Origin: an uncultured Thermodesulfobacteriota bacterium
Lineage (GTDB): Bacteria > Desulfobacterota > WTBG01
DNA: 32,650 bases
Reading direction: 5' to 3'
Assembly (NCBI GenBank): GCA_964473235.1
Contig: CAYYOQ010000002.1
Coordinates: 1-32,650 of the forward strand
In this document: in pieces, positions 50-12,044 of the stretch
Layout of the letters: each line of letters starts with the position of its first letter
How positions within the stretch are numbered: position 1 is the stretch's first letter
Made by a program: the position numbers and the translations under genes
The notes under the pieces: generated by a model
Database searches by the model: none
The model's input: only the letters and a program-made list of their open reading frames with translations
What the model was told of the DNA's origin: nothing

Positions 50-1045
50 TCAATTGACCTTTAATTCCCAATAAGGAACAAGCTGGTCAAATTGGAATAA
101 TCCTTTCATAGCTATATTCTCAGTAGCGATGCCCGATTCTTCCACTGCTGCTAAGGGGTTTAATCCACCCGATACAATCATACCTGCCCTTCCTTCAGAT
201 ACGGGTATATCGAGGAGCGGACGACCCGGCTTACCGATCATGAGTATACCACCCAAGCCAATTTCATTTAATTTTTTTCTTATTTTTTCAACTTTTGTAA
301 TAGCTATAGAAGGAACTTCTCGAAAACTTGCTCCGATCTTACCATCGCCGGTTATAGTTGCGTGGCGAACACTCGTCATACCACCTTTGATAAAAATTTC
401 GAGAGGATCGATTGAAGAACCATCATAATTAATTATTTCGGTAAAGCGAAAAGGGCGACCTTTTATTAATTCCAAAAGACCTCCAAATCTTGAGGTGGTA
501 TGAATACCTTCTTTCAATAGTATCCCGTTTATAGTAACACTACATACTGTCCCAATGGCCACTCTATCACCTTCAATTGATACATTTCCCATCTTCGTCC
601 CCGGAAATCCTAACACTACAAATCTCCCCATTCCAAGACCTGCTCGAAGCACTAATTGAATTTGCTGAAGAGCCTTCGTAAGGTATTCCCTCTCTATGGC
701 AGATATATTAAGGATGACATCCCCTCTTAATTTTTTCAAAGAAAAACTCATTAGATATGTCAAGGTATCAATTTTAGATGCGACAAACCCTACCTTTTCA
801 ATGACGAATGAGGATTTAAGTTCCTCTTCACCTTTTAAAGTTATCTTTCTTCCTCTTTTTCCAAGATTCTGGGTCAGACCATCCTGATCCATTTTCTGAA
901 GATAATATCTAACAGTTCTTTGACTGAGATCAAATCCAAATTCCTCCAATCTCTTGGAAATTCTGGTACCACCTAAAGTCTTTTCTGCTTTATGTAAAAT
1001 ATTAAGAATAGATACCAAAATCTTTTTTTTAGAAAACTTATCCAC
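50..1045 (-). CDS. nrpR: NrpR-type nitrogen regulatory repressor (winged HTH plus a single NrpR/DUF128 domain)
   Basis: 331 aa ORF with a GTG start at 1045 and GGAGGG 7 nt upstream on the minus strand. The N-terminal HTH-like segment is RISKRLEEFGFDLSQRTVRYYLQKMDQDGL. It is followed by one ~230 aa domain resembling methanogen NrpR (SRFGGLLEL, IDPLEIFIKGGMTS). The gene is divergent from nitrogen-assimilation genes. Confidence 0.8.
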   Translation of the reverse strand: MDKFSKKKILVSILNILHKAEKTLGGTRISKRLEEFGFDLSQRTVRYYLQKMDQDGLTQNLGKRGRKITLKGEEELKSSFVIEKVGFVASKIDTLTYLMSFSLKKLRGDVILNISAIEREYLTKALQQIQLVLRAGLGMGRFVVLGFPGTKMGNVSIEGDRVAIGTVCSVTINGILLKEGIHTTSRFGGLLELIKGRPFRFTEIINYDGSSIDPLEIFIKGGMTSVRHATITGDGKIGASFREVPSIAITKVEKIRKKLNEIGLGGILMIGKPGRPLLDIPVSEGRAGMIVSGGLNPLAAVEESGIATENIAMKGLFQFDQLVPYWELKVN

Positions 1046-1073
1046 AATTTTCCCTCCACAATTCTTGTTCCGT

Positions 1074-1101
1074 ATAATATCAGAAATTTATTATATGTCA
1101 A
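1074..1101 (-). promoter_or_regulatory. Candidate sigma70-type promoter for nrpR
   Basis: The minus strand reads TTGACA (plus 1096-1101), 16 nt spacer, TATTAT (plus 1074-1079). This lies ~25 nt upstream of the GTG start. Confidence 0.35.
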
Positions 1102-1120
1102 TTAAAATTCGGCAATATTG

Positions 1121-1132
1121 CCTTGTTTTTTC
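1121..1132. promoter_or_regulatory. Perfect 12 bp palindrome GGCAATATTGCC between the divergent promoters (candidate operator)
   Basis: Read directly from the sequence. It is the only GC-containing perfect palindrome in the AT-rich 236 bp nrpR/gltB-like intergenic region. Confidence 0.35.
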
Positions 1133-1184
1133 AAATTTGTTAAAAAATATTATATTGAAAATAAAAACACAACTATTTTATATA

Positions 1185-1213
1185 TTGACAAATAATTATT
1201 TTAATGCTAATAA
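1185..1213 (+). promoter_or_regulatory. Candidate sigma70-type promoter with extended -10 for the GltB-like gene
   Basis: TTGACA (1185-1190), 17 nt spacer, TAATAA (1208-1213), preceded by TGc (1205-1207). Confidence 0.4.
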
Positions 1214-1232
1214 TAGCCCGAATTGTTATATA

Positions 1233-1246
1233 GGAAAATACTTGCC
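1233..1246. promoter_or_regulatory. GGAA-N6-TGCC element, one mismatch from the methanogen NrpR operator GGAA-N6-TTCC
   Basis: GGAAAATACTTGCC lies ~20 nt downstream of the predicted -10 and 36 nt upstream of the ATG at 1282. Confidence 0.3.
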
Positions 1247-1281
1247 GTTAATAAAATTAATTTATTACGAGGAGTAACATC

Positions 1282-2913: not shown

Positions 2914-3058
2914 TTGCTATACACACAACCCCGGTAGCATGGCATGAGACCATTTCAATTAGGTAGTCCCTTAAAAAAATTAACTACCACATGGTATTCA
3001 AAGAGTCAGCTTACTAATAACACAAAACGTATAGCGTAGTAAGAAGGAGGTATTGTCT

Positions 3059-4306
3059 ATGTCAAAAGTTAATCCATTCGCAATGGCTCAGCAACAATTA
3101 GACATCGCCGCAGAAAAACTAGGTTTAGAACCAGCTATTCATGAATTCCTGCGGTGGCCCATGAAGGAAATAAAAGTAATCCTTCCCTTAAAAATGGATG
3201 ATGGATCGACCAGAATATTTCATGGCTACCGGGTTCAGTATAATACCGCTCGCGGGCCTGCGAAGGGAGGGCTGCGCTGGCATCCAGATGAAACCTTAGA
3301 TACGGTTCGTGCCCTGTCTGCCTGGATGACCTGGAAGACATCGGTAGTCGATCTCCCTTTGGGTGGAGGAAAAGGAGGGGTTACCTGTAATCCCAAAGAG
3401 CTTTCCGACAATGAGAAAGAACGACTTGCGAGAGCATATATGCGTGCGATCTGGCAAAACCTTGGTGTGAACAAGGATGTACCTGCTCCCGATGTATACA
3501 CTACTCCACAAATCATGGCATGGATGATGGATGAATATGAAACCCTGGTAGGGCACCATCATCCTGGCGTTATTACCGGTAAACCTTTAGCCATTGGAGG
3601 TTCTGCTGGGCGCACAGATGCGACGTCCCGTGGAGGTGCCTATGTCATCCGGGAAGCAGCACTTAGATTGAACCTGGATCTTCATGGTAAAACCATGGCT
3701 ATCCAAGGTTTTGGAAACGCAGGTCAATATGCAGCACTTCTCGGCAGCAAAATACTTGGTCTCAAACTGGTCGCTGCCTCTGACTCCAAAGGAGGTGTCT
3801 ATAACGAAAAAGGAATAGATCCGGAAGCGCTCGTAAACTATAAGTTGAAAACCGATACGCTCCAAGGATTCCCTAATACTGAACCCATTAGTAATGATGA
3901 ACTCCTTCAGCTGGAGGTTATGGTACTATTTCCTTCCGCGTTGGAACAGGTCATTACCGAACGAAATGCAGATGAGATTAAATGTAAAATCTTATGTGAG
4001 CTTGCGAATGGTCCCACCACACCTGAAGCAGACAATATCCTTTACCAGAATAATGTCTTTGTTCTTCCCGATTTCCTAGCGAATGCCGGTGGGGTCACGG
4101 TTTCTTACTTTGAGCAGGTGCAAAACACTTATAATTACTACTGGGAACTCGATGAGATTCACCAAAAACTTGATGTGAAAATGACCCATGCCTTTCAAAG
4201 CGTCTATGACATGAGCCAGCGTGAAAAGATTAATATGCGTCAGGCTGCGTACTTAGTGTCTGTAGCAAGGGTGGCTGAAGCGTGCCGACTACGCGGGTGG
4301 GTATAG
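3059..4306 (+). CDS. gdhA: Glutamate dehydrogenase
   Basis: Motifs: PAKGGLRWHP, LPLGGGKGG (catalytic Lys region) and the dinucleotide fold GFGNAG. The ATG at 3059 has AGGAGG 8 nt upstream. The ORF track extends to a TTG at 3053. Confidence 0.95.
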   Translation: MSKVNPFAMAQQQLDIAAEKLGLEPAIHEFLRWPMKEIKVILPLKMDDGSTRIFHGYRVQYNTARGPAKGGLRWHPDETLDTVRALSAWMTWKTSVVDLPLGGGKGGVTCNPKELSDNEKERLARAYMRAIWQNLGVNKDVPAPDVYTTPQIMAWMMDEYETLVGHHHPGVITGKPLAIGGSAGRTDATSRGGAYVIREAALRLNLDLHGKTMAIQGFGNAGQYAALLGSKILGLKLVAASDSKGGVYNEKGIDPEALVNYKLKTDTLQGFPNTEPISNDELLQLEVMVLFPSALEQVITERNADEIKCKILCELANGPTTPEADNILYQNNVFVLPDFLANAGGVTVSYFEQVQNTYNYYWELDEIHQKLDVKMTHAFQSVYDMSQREKINMRQAAYLVSVARVAEACRLRGWV

Positions 4307-4351
4307 TTTAACCCGCTATTTTTGAAGTATCAGAAAACATTCAACGCATAT

Positions 4352-4386
4352 AAAAAGGTCAAGGCTAAAAAACGCTTGACCTTTTT
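4352..4386 (+). terminator. Rho-independent terminator after gdhA (A-tract/T-tract flanked, potentially bidirectional)
   Basis: AAAAAGGTCAAG-loop-CTTGACCTTTTT. The 7 bp GGTCAAG/CTTGACC stem has an 11 nt loop and a T5 tail, 46 nt after the stop codon. Confidence 0.75.
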
Positions 4387-4552
4387 ATATACCTCTCATG
4401 TACCAAACTATTAACACGATGTTTCATCACTGCACCATACTATCCTAGTAACATTGCGAAAATGCATTCTCTCGCTTTTCTACTACCATGCTACTCTGCC
4501 CAATAAGTTTACAAAAATTTTACAATGTGGAAATTATCCTGAAACACTGATA

Positions 4553-6488: not shown

Positions 6489-7889
6489 ATGCCCAAGAAA
6501 TACACCATTAAAACCAAAACAACTCCTCCCCGGTTTACTCCCATGGGTAAGTCTGGCATTGTAGATTTCAGCGAAGACTGTGCACGTTGTCAGACATGTG
6601 CTAAGGATGCCTGTATCTTCAATGTCTATACCAACAGAAATTTCGATTCAACCCAGCTCGCCGATTCCATTGACTATCTCTGTAAAAATTGCTTTCGCTG
6701 CATCCAGAGCTGCAAAAAGGGACTTATTTCCAAATCCATAAACCCTGAATACCTGAGGATGGGAGATCACTACTGGACCCCCGACATCATTTCTTGTAAC
6801 TGGTATCAGGCCGAAACAGGGAAAATACCCGTATCAGGTGCCGGCTATCGAGGTAAGTTTGCCGGTAAGGGGTTTGATGATATGTGGACCGATATGTCTG
6901 AGATTGTACGGCCTACTCGAGATGGAATTCACGGAAGAGAATACATCAGCACCACAATCGACTTAGGCAAGAAACCACCTCTGCTTAAATTTGATGAAAA
7001 AGGTGCACTCATTTCAGAGACCCTTCCGCTTATTGAAATCCCTCTCCCCATGATCTTTAATGTGTCACCGTTTGGAGAAGTAAGTGAAAAGGTAGTGATC
7101 GCAATGGCAAAAGCAGCACAAGCACTCACTACTTTGATGTTCATCCCCGAAGAAAACCTGATACCATCACTGACACCGTATCTGAACTGGCTCGTTCCTC
7201 AGATTGCAGCAAAGGGTGAAAGACTTCCTGGGGAAATCATCAAAGGCTGCAGGATGGTTGAACTACTCTATACAAGCGAATGGGAAAAGACCTGGCTCTC
7301 CATCAAAGAAATAAATCCCCAGGTGCTCATTTCGCTCAAAATACCTTTTAATTACCATGCAACAGAACTTACTGCAGCACTTGCGTTACAAGGAGTTGAA
7401 ATCATTCACCTCTATGCTGACCTGCAAGGCAATTCCATTGACGATGTCCATCCCCGGTTTATAAAAGACTTGACCAGAGATATCCACCTGCGTCTGGTGG
7501 ATGAATCACTACGAGATAAGGTAACCCTTCTGGTGAGCGGTGGCATTGCCATGGCTGAGCATGTGGCGAAGGCGATTATCTGTGGGGCAGATGGAGTCAT
7601 ACTCGATCTCCCTCTTTTGATTGCGCTTGAGTGCCGACTGTGTAAAAAGTGCCTAAGGGGTCTTCCTTGTCCAGTTAAAATAGGAAACATCAATATTGGT
7701 TGGGCAACACAACGCATTATGAACTTAATGGCTGCCTGGCGCAGTCAACTGCTTGAAGTACTTGGAGCAATGGGTTTGCGTGAGGTGAGAAGGTTGCGAG
7801 GTGAAATGGGGAGAGCCATGCTTTTTAAAGACCTCGAGCAAGAAATCTTTGCCCCGCTGTTTGGTCAAAGGATACAAGAGTTACACTAG
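6489..7889 (+). CDS. Ferredoxin-domain plus degenerate GltB FMN-domain paralog (putative non-catalytic glutamate synthase subunit)
   Basis: 466 aa and clearly paralogous to the next gene (GDHYWTPDIISCNWYQAETGKIP vs GDYRWTADLIISTWQQAETGKLP). It keeps two N-terminal CxxCxxCxxx(x)C motifs and the C-terminal ECRLCKKCLRGLPC cluster. It lacks the GGMSFGS, QGAKPG and DGxxGGTG motifs. Confidence 0.8.
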   Translation: MPKKYTIKTKTTPPRFTPMGKSGIVDFSEDCARCQTCAKDACIFNVYTNRNFDSTQLADSIDYLCKNCFRCIQSCKKGLISKSINPEYLRMGDHYWTPDIISCNWYQAETGKIPVSGAGYRGKFAGKGFDDMWTDMSEIVRPTRDGIHGREYISTTIDLGKKPPLLKFDEKGALISETLPLIEIPLPMIFNVSPFGEVSEKVVIAMAKAAQALTTLMFIPEENLIPSLTPYLNWLVPQIAAKGERLPGEIIKGCRMVELLYTSEWEKTWLSIKEINPQVLISLKIPFNYHATELTAALALQGVEIIHLYADLQGNSIDDVHPRFIKDLTRDIHLRLVDESLRDKVTLLVSGGIAMAEHVAKAIICGADGVILDLPLLIALECRLCKKCLRGLPCPVKIGNINIGWATQRIMNLMAAWRSQLLEVLGAMGLREVRRLRGEMGRAMLFKDLEQEIFAPLFGQRIQELH

Positions 7890-7898
7890 CACTATTCT

Positions 7899-9407
7899 AT
7901 GGATGAGAGAGCATTAGCACAACCCATCGAGACTATACCCGCACCTTCCCGATTCAGAAATCCGATTGGGAAATATAAAATCAGGAGAAGCCCTGCCTGT
8001 AATGGCTGTGGGAGGTGTATCGAGTGTTGTCCCTATGGTGTGCATCAAAGAATAGGGAAAAAACTTGCCCGCCCTCAAGATTATAGATGTAGGGGCTTTT
8101 CCTGCAAGCAAAACCCATTTTACTGCATTGACCAGTGTCCTCGCAAGGCACTGAAGCTTGCCCTCAATCCTCTTGCTGAGGCGATGGGAGATTACCGCTG
8201 GACCGCTGATTTGATTATCAGTACCTGGCAGCAGGCGGAGACAGGGAAATTACCGGCAGGGGATATTGAATACGAAGTAGGTGATGCGGGCGGTGGATTT
8301 GATCAGATGAGATTTATCTTTCATGCGGCAGGAGCCAAGATTCCTCCAGAGAAAATCTCAACCAGCATCGAGCTGAATAAAAGAGATGATGGTCGTCCTT
8401 CGGTGCGCATTGAAGTACCTTTTTATGGAGGGGGAATGTCCTTTGGCTCAGTAAGTCTGCCCACCATCGTTGCCAGGGCAAAGGCGGCAAAAATCTGGAA
8501 CACCTTCACCTGTACTGGTGAAGGAGGATATCCTGAAGTACTGGTACCCTATGCGGACCATGTCATCACCCAGGTTGCCACTGGTCTCTTCGGAGTGCGA
8601 GAGCACACCATTCAGCGAGCAAAAATAGTAGAGTTTAAATATGCCCAGGGAGCCAAGCCTGGGCTGGGAGGGCATTTACTCGGTGATAAGGTCACCCCCG
8701 CAGTAGCCCAGATGAGGGAATCAATAGTAGGCAATGCGCTCTTCTCACCATTTCCCTTTCACAGTGTGTATTCTGTTGAAGATCACAAGAAACACGTGGA
8801 TTGGATTAAACACATTAATCCTCGGGCACTGGTGTCGGTAAAGGTTTCAACCCCTACGGATGTGGATATGGTCGCGGTGGGAAGTTACTATGCGGGCGCC
8901 CATATTATCCACCTCGATGGAAGTTATGGCGGGACCGGCGCTGCGCCCGATATTGCCAAAAAGAATATTGCCATGCCCATCGAATATGCAATCCCCAAAG
9001 TACATAAGTTTTTGATCAATGAAGGCATTCGCGATAACATAACTTTAATCGCCAGTGGTGGAATCAGAACCGCCTATGATATCGCCAAGGCAATTGCCCT
9101 TGGCGCCGATGGCGCGGTAACGGGAACTGCTGAGCTGGTTGCACTGGAATGCTTGCGCTGTGGCAACTGTGAAAGTGGTCGTGGCTGTGCACGAGGAATA
9201 GCCACTACCGATATGAAACTCAGCAATCTGATTGAAGTAGAATGGGGGACACAGCGCATTGTAAATCTCTTTACTTCCTGGAGAACTCAGCTGGTTGAGA
9301 TTCTATCCCGCTTGGGGATGCGTAGTATTAAAGAGCTCGTCGGAAGAACTGATTGTTTAAAGCACCTTGATTATACTAACGATGTAGTGATGAAAGCAGC
9401 CCCTTAG
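7899..9407 (+). CDS. gltB: Archaeal-type glutamate synthase FMN subunit (N-terminal ferredoxin domain plus GltB domain 2)
   Basis: 502 aa. Motifs: CNGCGRCIECCP, GGGMSFGS, YAQGAKPGLGGHL, LDGSYGGTGAAP, ASGGIRT, ECLRCGNCESGRGC. Confidence 0.9.
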   Translation: MDERALAQPIETIPAPSRFRNPIGKYKIRRSPACNGCGRCIECCPYGVHQRIGKKLARPQDYRCRGFSCKQNPFYCIDQCPRKALKLALNPLAEAMGDYRWTADLIISTWQQAETGKLPAGDIEYEVGDAGGGFDQMRFIFHAAGAKIPPEKISTSIELNKRDDGRPSVRIEVPFYGGGMSFGSVSLPTIVARAKAAKIWNTFTCTGEGGYPEVLVPYADHVITQVATGLFGVREHTIQRAKIVEFKYAQGAKPGLGGHLLGDKVTPAVAQMRESIVGNALFSPFPFHSVYSVEDHKKHVDWIKHINPRALVSVKVSTPTDVDMVAVGSYYAGAHIIHLDGSYGGTGAAPDIAKKNIAMPIEYAIPKVHKFLINEGIRDNITLIASGGIRTAYDIAKAIALGADGAVTGTAELVALECLRCGNCESGRGCARGIATTDMKLSNLIEVEWGTQRIVNLFTSWRTQLVEILSRLGMRSIKELVGRTDCLKHLDYTNDVVMKAAP

Positions 9408-9410
9408 ACA

Positions 9411-12044
9411 ATGAAAGACTATCTCTCCCCCTCAGCGATTCAACATATTCTTTTGTCTCGATCTAAGCTTGCCAAAGCTTATAAACCTCCTACTGCATAC
9501 AAAGCAGAAGAAGAAGGCGGTTGTGGCGTAACCGGTTTTGCCTGCAGCATCCCGGTGAGCGGTCGCCACATCTTTACACCCTCCATTCAAATGCATAATA
9601 GAGGAAATGGGAAAGGAGGAGGGATTGCAGCGGTAGGTCTTTCACCTGAAGGGTTAAGGGTTTCCCCCTCTCTTCTAGAAGAAGCGTATCTAATCCAGAT
9701 CGCCTATATTGATTCTCATATCCGAAAGGCTGTTGAAACAGAATGCATTAGTCCATTCCTTGAGGTGGCAAAAGCCGAAAAGATTCCCACCATTGATGAC
9801 TATAAGATGATTGAAGGTCTGGAGTCCAAACCTCCGGATGTGTGGCGATACTTTGCCAGAGTGAAAGAAAAGGTACTACAACAGTTCATAGAAGAACACC
9901 ACCTTGAAGAGCTACCCACTCCCAGGGCAGAAGATGAATTCATTCATCAAAACAGTTTCAAACTCAACCTAAAATTCTATGCCTCCCTTGGCGAAAAGAA
10001 GGCCTTTGTCTTATCCCATGGGCGCAATATGATGATTCTTAAGATCGTAGGGTATGCGGAACAAGTGGTACGTTATTACCAGCTTGATGATTTTCAAGCC
10101 CACATCTGGATAGCTCATCAACGCTACCCGACCAAGGGAAGAGTGTGGCATCCGGGCGGTGCGCATCCTTTCTGCGGAATGCATGAAGCCTTAGTCCATA
10201 ACGGCGATTTTGCCAATTACTACTCGGTTTCAGAGTATCTCAAGCAGAGAAATATCTACCCTCTTTTTCTCACTGATACAGAAGTTTCAATTCTCCTTTT
10301 TGATCTTTTGCACAGAGTGTATGGCTATCCCCTTGAATATGTTATCGAGGCACTTGCTCCCACCACCGAGATGGATTTTGATCTTCTCCCTTCTGATAAG
10401 CAGGAAATATACCGTGCCATCCAGGCAAGCCATATCCACGGTTCCCCCGATGGTCCCTGGTTTTTTATCATCGCAAGAAATGATTCCTATGAAAAGAAAC
10501 TACAGCTTATCGGGATCACCGATACCGCCATGTTACGACCTCAAGTATTCGCCCTCCAGGAAGGGAAAGTACAGATAGGGCTCATCTGCTCCGAAAAACA
10601 AGCCATCGATGCCACACTCCACAGCCTCTCCTCTGAGGATACAAGGTTCTGCCCCATTGCAGATAAATACTGGAATGCCCGGGGTGGAAGCTATACCGAT
10701 GGGGGTGCATTTCTTTTTACTCTCAAGCACAATGGTGATAAAGGGAATCAGATGTGCCTAACCTGTACTGATAAATTCGGCCGTACCATTTCCACTCTGC
10801 AAGGAAAAACACACTGGGATAGGAGCATTACGCTCACCGCACCTGCTAGTGCATCCTCGATTATGACCATGGTTGATGAAGGGCTTTACCAGAAAGATTC
10901 CACACTACTTTCACGTACCCTCAGTGACCACCTTAGCACCTGGGACTACCATACTATACTATGGTGCTGTGAGAGCCTGGTAGAAAAAGCGCACGCAGGT
11001 AACAACCATAAGGCAAAGATCATTGAACTCTTGACCTTGCTCATCGATCACCGCTATGACACTGGGACTAAAAAGAGAAGCTCTATACTGCAGATTGTAC
11101 ATGAACATCTCTATAAAGTGTTCCACTCAACACCCCCTTGTGGAACTGAGGGAACAGACCTTTACCGTTTCATTGATTACCATACCAGCACTACATTAGC
11201 TCCCCCTCAAAATTCTGGGCAGATCTTAATTATTCACGCCAAAGATTTTCCACCTGAAGGTGATCACAGTGATGCCCGGCTCATGGTCGATGCCTACCAG
11301 ATGGGATGGAAACAATTCATTGCCTTCGACTACCGGGGGCAGCGATTCTGTGGCTGTGGCTTAGGTCCTGATACTAAAGGAGTGCGCATTGATGCCTATG
11401 GGAGTTCGGGCGATTATCTGGGCTCAGCGATTGATGGAATGGAACTCTATGTCCACGGTACTGCCCAAGATCAACTAGGTCAAATTATGAAATCAGGGAA
11501 AATGGTGGTATATGGCGATGTGGGTCAAACCCTCATGTATGGTGCCAAAGGTGGTGAAGTGTATATCATGGGAAATGCGGCGGGAAGACCGCTGATTAAT
11601 GCAGTAGGACGTCCGAGAGTAGTTATCAACGGCACTTGCTTAGACTACCTAGCTGAATCTTTTATGGCAGGTGATCCCCTCCAGGGCGGTGGTTTTGTAG
11701 TTTTAAACGGAATTGAGTTTGATGAAAAAGGAACACTAAGAGAACAACCAACCCCTTACCCGGGTTCTAATCTTTTTTCGCTTGCCTCAGGCGGTGCAAT
11801 TTATGTGAGAGATCCCTATCAAAAACTGATGGCTGAACAGCTCAATGGTGGTGAGTTTGTCTCCCTCACCCCCGATGACTGGAACCTTATTCTTCCCTAT
11901 CTTAAAGAAAATGAACGGCTCTTTGATATATCCATTGAACGAGATCTCCTCACTACCAGGGGGAAATTAAAAGAGCCTCAGGAAATCTACCGCAAGGTGA
12001 GGGCAGTGAAGCTTGACGTATTAACTGAAGGAGAAGGAGAATAA
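9411..12044 (+). CDS. Fusion of the class II (Ntn) glutamine amidotransferase domain and the GXGXG (GltB C-terminal) domain of glutamate synthase
   Basis: 877 aa. The CGVTGF nucleophile Cys is at residue 38, implying a 37 aa propeptide as occurs in some bacterial GltB proteins. Other motifs: HQRYPTKG...HNGDFANY and a C-terminal VVYGDVGQTLMYGAKGGEVYIMGNAAGRP. A ~170 aa linker is unassigned. Confidence 0.88.
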   Translation: MKDYLSPSAIQHILLSRSKLAKAYKPPTAYKAEEEGGCGVTGFACSIPVSGRHIFTPSIQMHNRGNGKGGGIAAVGLSPEGLRVSPSLLEEAYLIQIAYIDSHIRKAVETECISPFLEVAKAEKIPTIDDYKMIEGLESKPPDVWRYFARVKEKVLQQFIEEHHLEELPTPRAEDEFIHQNSFKLNLKFYASLGEKKAFVLSHGRNMMILKIVGYAEQVVRYYQLDDFQAHIWIAHQRYPTKGRVWHPGGAHPFCGMHEALVHNGDFANYYSVSEYLKQRNIYPLFLTDTEVSILLFDLLHRVYGYPLEYVIEALAPTTEMDFDLLPSDKQEIYRAIQASHIHGSPDGPWFFIIARNDSYEKKLQLIGITDTAMLRPQVFALQEGKVQIGLICSEKQAIDATLHSLSSEDTRFCPIADKYWNARGGSYTDGGAFLFTLKHNGDKGNQMCLTCTDKFGRTISTLQGKTHWDRSITLTAPASASSIMTMVDEGLYQKDSTLLSRTLSDHLSTWDYHTILWCCESLVEKAHAGNNHKAKIIELLTLLIDHRYDTGTKKRSSILQIVHEHLYKVFHSTPPCGTEGTDLYRFIDYHTSTTLAPPQNSGQILIIHAKDFPPEGDHSDARLMVDAYQMGWKQFIAFDYRGQRFCGCGLGPDTKGVRIDAYGSSGDYLGSAIDGMELYVHGTAQDQLGQIMKSGKMVVYGDVGQTLMYGAKGGEVYIMGNAAGRPLINAVGRPRVVINGTCLDYLAESFMAGDPLQGGGFVVLNGIEFDEKGTLREQPTPYPGSNLFSLASGGAIYVRDPYQKLMAEQLNGGEFVSLTPDDWNLILPYLKENERLFDISIERDLLTTRGKLKEPQEIYRKVRAVKLDVLTEGEGE

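Follow-up and report, generated by a model that had tools for sequence, protein, structure and literature searches.

According to the literature that we searched, studies of the nitrogen repressor NrpR have been confined to methanogens. In Methanococcus maripaludis, NrpR represses the nif, glnA, glnK-amtB, and mod operons (PMC2723118). The archaeal operator is GGAAN6TTCC, and 2-oxoglutarate lowers the affinity of the repressor for it (PMC2723118; bioRxiv 10.1101/2020.05.06.080432). The expression of M. maripaludis NrpR itself was reported to be unresponsive to nitrogen (PMC9765008). In Methanosarcina, NrpR is split over two genes, with NrpR1 holding the DNA-binding region (bioRxiv 10.1101/2020.06.15.153874). 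The occurrence of NrpR in "certain Bacteria" was noted in 2009 (PMC2723118). Here, we analyzed an nrpR gene and its adjoining intergenic spacer on a 32,650-nt stretch of DNA from an uncultured Thermodesulfobacteriota bacterium (contig CAYYOQ010000002.1 of assembly GCA_964473235.1, positions 1–32,650; hereafter, the window). The two palindromes located beside nrpR in this spacer are very probably its binding sites, judging from their conservation, geometry, and neighborhood.

The protein shares with M. maripaludis NrpR a winged helix-turn-helix (wHTH) domain and an NrpR regulatory domain (NRD), and both systems feature a dyad-symmetric 4-N6-4 element spanning 14 bp. The M. maripaludis system comprises two NRDs per chain, GGAA/TTCC half-sites, an archaeal promoter with a TATA box and a B recognition element (TATA/BRE), and a global nitrogen regulon. 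In contrast, the system described here comprises one NRD, GGCA/TGCC half-sites, sigma-70 promoters, a predicted regulon consisting of a glutamate synthase (GltB)-like gene, the glutamate dehydrogenase gene (gdh), and nrpR, and an extra N4 site at the nrpR promoter. 2-Oxoglutarate releases the M. maripaludis repressor, whereas its action here is presumed by homology. NrpRI of Methanosarcina mazei and M. acetivorans, which works with NrpRII, likewise combines an HTH with a single NRD, and Joint Genome Institute (JGI) annotation names close homologues of the present protein "global nitrogen regulator NrpRI". Unlike the Methanosarcina system, only one PF01995 gene is found here, and the targets and promoter type differ. 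MJ0159 (3NEK) is alike in fold and motifs, but is an NRD-only chain without an HTH. The NrpR family and its database names are known; paired 14- and 16-bp sites with a GGCA half-site, in a bacterial setting, represent a variant without an experimental study in the literature searched. In agreement with the original prediction made for this DNA, that literature, which left out most subscription journals, yielded no functional work on bacterial NrpR/DUF128, including RegPrecise.

Identity of the NrpR Protein

The nrpR gene occupies positions 50–1045 on the (−) strand, starts with GTG, and encodes 331 amino acids. A Pfam hidden Markov model search identified HTH_12 at residues 11–76 (E = 1.4e-17) and a single NRD1_2/PF01995 domain at residues 85–322 (E = 1.7e-77). 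The latter match scored 260.3 bits, against a curated cut-off of 25 bits, and spans model positions 1–236 of 238. The only solved relative is the NRD of Methanocaldococcus jannaschii MJ0159 (3NEK; E = 2e-30), with which the protein has the motifs RF..II.YDGSS.DP.E.F, FRE, and GG.NP in common. An AlphaFold2 (AF2) model, generated with an alignment of 44 diverse homologues, showed a mean predicted local distance difference test (pLDDT) score of 88.9, with low confidence only in the linker (residues 80–85). In a Foldseek comparison, the modeled NRD superimposed on 3NEK with a TM-score of 0.90 (normalized to the target), a root-mean-square deviation of 2.3 Å, and E = 5.8e-22, with 32% identity to MJ0159 over 237 alignment columns. 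The N-terminal domain of the model, arranged as three helices followed by two strands, resembles the wHTH domains of DtxR, PadR, and CggR. Sequence comparison also revealed a conserved N-terminus (MDK..RK) among relatives. The domain matches and the 3NEK fold bear out the original description of a 331-aa protein with an HTH and one NrpR/DUF128 domain, and the product of the open reading frame (ORF) is a true member of the NrpR family, with one NRD.

The nrpR gene is the only PF01995 gene in its own genome, a 91%-complete assembly, in which we found no Methanosarcina-type NrpRII partner (an NRD protein lacking an HTH). Relatives with 68–77% identity were found in Thermodesulfobacteriota metagenome-assembled genomes and in the closed genome ORM2a (CP113000). 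An alignment-based search detected close one-NRD homologues in at least 573 species genomes, including members of Spirochaetota, Verrucomicrobiota, Nitrospirota, Planctomycetota, Hydrogenedentota, Omnitrophota, Rokubacteria, Actinomycetes, and Chloroflexi. Since nearly all of these genomes are bacterial, with one homologue record carrying the label Bathyarchaeia, the gene is no oddity in a bacterium.

Two Conserved Palindromes beside nrpR

The spacer between nrpR and the GltB-like gene covers 1046–1281, with the 236 bp originally given for it and a GC content of 22%. It contains two candidate operators, neither of which has a strand. The N4-type palindrome GGCAATATTGCC, at 1111–1122, is perfect and lies within the 14-mer CGGCAATATTGCCT (1110–1123). 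The N6-type palindrome GGAAAATACTTGCC, at 1233–1246, deviates from GGCA-N6-TGCC by one mismatch. Both had been predicted with the correct sequence, and the N6 site with the correct position; the N4 site had been placed ten positions too far along, at 1121–1132.

To the extent that short palindromes are common, the two elements might be chance or structural (hairpin or terminator) features of an AT-rich spacer, and one genome-wide match in a relative (L178) does sit in a terminator stem. Yet GGCA-N4-TGCC arose only 3 times in 20,000 shuffles of the spacer, and GGCA-N6-TGCC with up to one mismatch arose 71 times. The orthologous spacers are not alignable overall, and the two motifs are still evident by eye, conserved in sequence and position, without a loop or a T-run. 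We then have an unbiased enumeration of all 256 four-base half-site palindromes with spacers of 0–10 in 12 non-redundant orthologous spacers, with 30 shuffles. The top patterns were GGCA-N4-TGCC, found in 10 of the 12 spacers, and GGCA-N6-TGCC, found in 9. GCAA-N4-TTGC (8/12) and GCAA-N2-TTGC (6/12) are these sites again, shifted inward by one base. The best unrelated palindrome scored 5/12, and the shuffle maximum for any pattern was 5. The conservation data effectively refute an origin by chance or structure, which we regard as extremely improbable.

The same layout recurred in 20-odd more genomes of the class, in which NrpR is 41–51% identical and the N6 site is often doubled, at a distance of 22 bp. 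In five loci from other families of the class (L031, L032, L034, L042, and L146), tandem N6 sites are spaced exactly 22 bp start-to-start before the GltB-like gene or gdh. The operators of M. maripaludis reportedly lie at or after the transcription start, as attributed to Lie et al. in 2005, and the nif promoter is said to carry two. The tandem N6 sites recall these two operators (Lie et al. 2005, title).

For a comparison across phyla, we inspected 400 nt upstream of nrpR in 73 of the loci from the alignment-based search, which represent about ten phyla. The top patterns were again GGCA-N4-TGCC (47/73) and GGCA-N6-TGCC (28/73), with a shuffle maximum of 6. The symmetrized consensus sequences were cGGCAA-TA-TTGCCg for the N4 type (64 distinct sites) and cGGCAAT-TA-ATTGCCg for the N6 type (47 distinct sites). 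The GGCA/TGCC half-sites proposed for this locus are therefore conserved, nrpR-linked elements, both within the class and across phyla.

Placement of the Sites at Two Divergent Promoters

Two sigma-70 promoters are predicted in the spacer, each with an 11/12 match to the consensus. The promoter of the GltB-like/gdh operon (1185–1214, (+) strand) consists of a −35 TTGACA (1185–1190), an 18-nt spacer, and a −10 AATAAT (1209–1214), and its TTGACA is conserved in relatives. The nrpR promoter (1074–1101, (−) strand) consists of a −35 TTGACA (1101–1096), a 16-nt spacer, and a TG-extended −10 TATTAT (1079–1074). The arrangement TTGACA-16-TATTAT/TAGTAT/TATTGT recurs at nrpR in L004, L005, L010, L011, and L013. 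From the two promoters, transcription is predicted to start near 1221 on the (+) strand and near 1067 on the (−) strand. A ribosome-binding site read from the sequence, GGAGGG (1052–1057, (−) strand), precedes the GTG start by 6 nt. Both TTGACA promoters of the original prediction thus exist; their orientation is divergent, back to back, rather than facing.

The N6 site starts 19 nt after the −10 of the GltB-like promoter in the window, and 18–21 nt after the target −10 in the six spacers that allowed both elements to be called. Its center is therefore near +18 (about +18/+19 from the predicted start of the GltB-like/gdh promoter), inside DNA that RNA polymerase must occupy. The predicted location just downstream of this −10 was confirmed, and corresponds to a repressor position. 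The N4 site lies 9 nt upstream of the nrpR −35 here and 9–10 nt upstream in the four spacers with both a site and a called promoter. Its center is at about −49.5 from the predicted nrpR start.

Two-operator repressors of the GalR/LacI type use one operator past the transcription start and one upstream of the −35, which a multimer can bridge. The operator layout here is similar, with sites about 120 bp apart. The likeness is an analogy only, as the protein families are unrelated. The center-to-center distance between N4 and N6, derived by hand from the site positions, ranges from 91 to 246 bp in relatives without helical phasing, and a strict DNA loop between the two sites is therefore unsupported.

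Evidence Linking NrpR to the Sites

Three indirect observations support NrpR as the binder. First, nrpR is the only constant neighbor of the sites, as the other flanking gene alternates between GltB-like and gdh. Second, the 4-N6-4 dyad geometry of the N6 site is that of the archaeal NrpR operator, with different half-site letters (GGCA/TGCC versus GGAA/TTCC). Third, the half-sites covary with the protein. An NrpR subgroup (L128, L141, L162, and L171) carries a wing insertion, RGR[DH]GGR, and LV in place of LT after the recognition helix. GGAA/TTCC half-sites accompany 3–4 of these 4 wing-insertion proteins, as compared with 3 of 76 others (Fisher p = 9e-4 to 2e-5).

The same observations bear on whether another transcription factor binds the palindromes, with NrpR as a mere neighbor that recognizes something else. 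Against this, nrpR alone stays constant beside the sites across about ten phyla while the flanking genes change, the half-site type follows the wing subtype, and the 4-N6-4 geometry is the archaeal one. What speaks for a different factor is that the binding of NrpR is deduced from sequence, and that genome-wide pattern counts are not enriched: exact GGCAA-N4-TTGCC was no more frequent in 30 relatives than a reversed-pattern control, so the case for NrpR is built on the nrpR-adjacent sites. On balance, we consider the involvement of another factor to be very unlikely.

The GGCA...TGCC elements could also be read as sigma-54 (−24/−12) promoters of nitrogen genes. TGGCA...TTGC resembles the sigma-54 consensus, the genome encodes many sigma-54 activators, and ORM2a has a true sigma-54 promoter, TGGCACAACGATTGC, in front of amtB-glnK. 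However, such promoters require GG-N10-GC, whereas the N6 site has GG-N9-GC and the N4 site has GG-N7-GC, and the conservation is dyad-symmetric, with a conserved TTGACA/−10 pair just upstream. Furthermore, the spacer contains no match to the sigma-54 consensus within 2 mismatches. The wrong spacing and the dyad symmetry led us to reject this reading, to which we assign a negligible probability.

Predicted Targets and Extent of the Regulon

The first predicted target (1282–2913, (+) strand) encodes a 543-aa flavin mononucleotide (FMN)-binding glutamate-synthase-family protein, similar to GltB domain 2 (Pfam Glu_synthase, 4.7e-13). Its orthologue in ORM2a is named "FMN-binding glutamate synthase family protein" by NCBI, and the gene is divergent from nrpR in most relatives. 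The second predicted target is gdh (3053–4306, (+) strand; Pfam ELFV_dehydrog, 1.6e-75; NCBIfam GdhA_Arch, 597 bits), the true start of which is probably ATG 3059. In L001, L002, L012, L039, and L040, gdh is directly divergent from nrpR. The 139-nt spacer between the two target genes shows no terminator and no significant fold (z = 0.23). The unit is closed by two intrinsic-terminator hairpins (4296–4390, (+) strand), the first at 4296–4317 with a T-run, and the second, AAAAAGGTCAAG...CTTGACCTTTTT, at 4352–4386. The second hairpin is conserved in L001.

The original prediction held that NrpR controls a nitrogen cluster, and control of the cluster as a whole was not supported. Only two intergenic candidate sites occur in the whole window, both in the nrpR/GltB-like spacer, and consequently only nrpR and the GltB-like-gdh unit bear them. 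No NrpR box with up to one mismatch was found upstream of glnA, gdh, the GOGAT (glutamate synthase) genes of the split enzyme, carA, or purF, and all other spacers in the window lacked one as well. Scans of the genome itself with a position weight matrix (PWM), together with the relatives, likewise revealed no further convincing intergenic operator beyond the nrpR locus. The two intergenic sites in the window and these negative scans suggest a local regulon, comprising the GltB-like gene, gdh, and nrpR itself, rather than the whole cluster.

Several matches elsewhere were inspected and rejected. The best PWM match in the genome (contig C7) lies inside an apparent triose-phosphate isomerase (tpiA) gene, and that on contig C14 is coding. 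An exact 14-nt copy of GGAAAATACTTGCC occurs 73 nt upstream of rpmB (C82:8143–8156). Since relatives keep only CTTGCCAAAA (with TTGCCA as the −35) and an A-rich tract, and not the left half, this copy is the rpmB promoter and not an operator. All 17 inspected exact GGCAA-N4-TTGCC matches in relatives were coding or terminator stems. Classical nif genes were likewise dismissed as targets, as only NifH-like genes without a site are present on contig C42. That locus (C42:7549–11668, (−) strand) comprises two NifH-like genes in tandem, encoding 281 and 278 aa, and then an ORF of 799 aa; the small ORFs on its flanks are of unknown function. The locus has neither separate genes of nifD/nifK size beside it on the contig nor an NrpR site.

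Upstream of glnA, the block 4505–4545, AGTTTACAAAnAnTTTACAnTGnnGAAATnATCCnGAAA, is conserved with L001 and contains a direct repeat of TTTACA. The block is not of the NrpR type and could be a promoter plus the site of another regulator. No Rfam element was matched in the window.

Nitrogen Control in Related Genomes

Each of the 17 high-quality genomes of the class contained NrpR. PII (PF00543) was present in 9 of these 17 and absent from 18 of the 31 genomes examined in the class, and Amt (PF00909) was present in 2 of the 17 and missing from 28 of the 31. Neither PII nor AmtB was found in the 91%-complete assembly that contains the window. This distribution makes NrpR the most conserved candidate 2-oxoglutarate sensor in the lineage. 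NtcA is a transcription factor that binds 2-oxoglutarate directly. PII/NtrBC, NtcA, and GlnR/TnrA serve the same physiological task as that envisaged for NrpR, sensing the balance between carbon and nitrogen, with unrelated folds.

In ORM2a (L091, G019:C1:1900000–1918000), a GAF-sigma54 activator, the consensus sigma-54 promoter, and amtB-glnK (together at 6884–10549) adjoin the nrpR/GltB-like/gdh locus. As amtB-glnK has no NrpR box there, two nitrogen control systems stand side by side. The genome containing the window encodes at least 15 sigma-54 activators. Together with the sigma-54-driven amtB-glnK unit next to nrpR in ORM2a, this leaves the idea that NrpR replaces NtrBC/GlnR-type control unsupported.

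Proposed Mechanism and Implications

We consider it probable that a local NrpR, probably released by 2-oxoglutarate, represses the FMN-GltB-like/gdh operon through the N6 site, while the N4 site serves autoregulation, anchoring, or both. NrpR, with its wHTH, flexible linker, and one NRD, would act as an oligomeric repressor. At low 2-oxoglutarate, it would occupy the N6 site GGAAAATACTTGCC and block RNA polymerase at the GltB-like/gdh promoter. The N4 site GGCAATATTGCC may serve the autoregulation of nrpR via the upstream promoter region, anchor the second dimer of a multimer, or both. At high 2-oxoglutarate, NrpR would leave the DNA, by homology with archaeal NrpR, and both glutamate-forming enzymes would be made. 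The release by 2-oxoglutarate would thereby allow two 2-oxoglutarate-consuming enzymes to be induced by their own substrate.

Several points weigh against this scheme. The N6 site of the window is imperfect, with GGAA as its left half; the same left half recurs in L004, L007, and L010. With its center at about −49.5, the N4 site is not where a classic repressor would sit, and it is unusual for a single dimer to use two half-site spacings that differ by 2 bp. The promoters and transcription starts were predicted from the consensus only. Family membership, fold, and the conservation and fixed placement of both sites are shown here, whereas binding of this protein to DNA, repression, the effector, and the role of the N4 site are deduced; the lack of genome-wide enrichment described above also counts here. 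Moreover, if the glutamate dehydrogenase is catabolic, induction by 2-oxoglutarate makes little sense.

Some of these points feed a different possibility, in which NrpR does bind the sites and the signal or sign is unlike that in the archaeal model. Another metabolite, such as glutamine, glutamate, or some other keto acid, could act as the effector, or the N4 site could activate nrpR, making NrpR a dual regulator. The position of the N4 site, upstream of the −35, is one at which activators act, or repressors directed at the C-terminal domain of the RNA polymerase alpha subunit (alpha-CTD); the NRD is just 32% identical to MJ0159; and the predicted regulon, gdh plus GltB-like, is not the nif/glnA/amtB set of archaea. 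On the other hand, the most conserved NRD motifs are common to the archaeal domain, 2-oxoglutarate as the effector suits two regulated enzymes that both use it, and repression is the only role open to an N6 site at about +18. We judge a departure of this kind to be unlikely, and favor repression of the GltB-like/gdh operon with release by 2-oxoglutarate.

A more far-reaching version of the favored scheme is possible, and we offer it tentatively, with some doubt. In a class that nearly lacks Amt and often lacks PII, NrpR might be the conserved direct sensor of 2-oxoglutarate. One multimer, on flexible linkers, might hold the 14-bp N4 and 16-bp N6 operators and shut two divergent sigma-70 promoters at once, as a module present in hundreds of species from about ten phyla.

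The present analysis corrects the tempting view of NrpR governing the whole 19-kb nitrogen cluster, and draws attention to a lineage in which nitrogen is apparently handled with no AmtB and, in many cases, no PII. For this locus, the protein and the likely operators and targets are now resolved at the base-pair level, and the architecture recurs in hundreds of bacterial species. Therefore, a simple gel-shift plus a reporter could reveal the coupling between 2-oxoglutarate and glutamate synthesis in a large group of anaerobes. If the more far-reaching version holds, it would represent a widespread, unstudied bacterial form of carbon/nitrogen control over glutamate synthesis.

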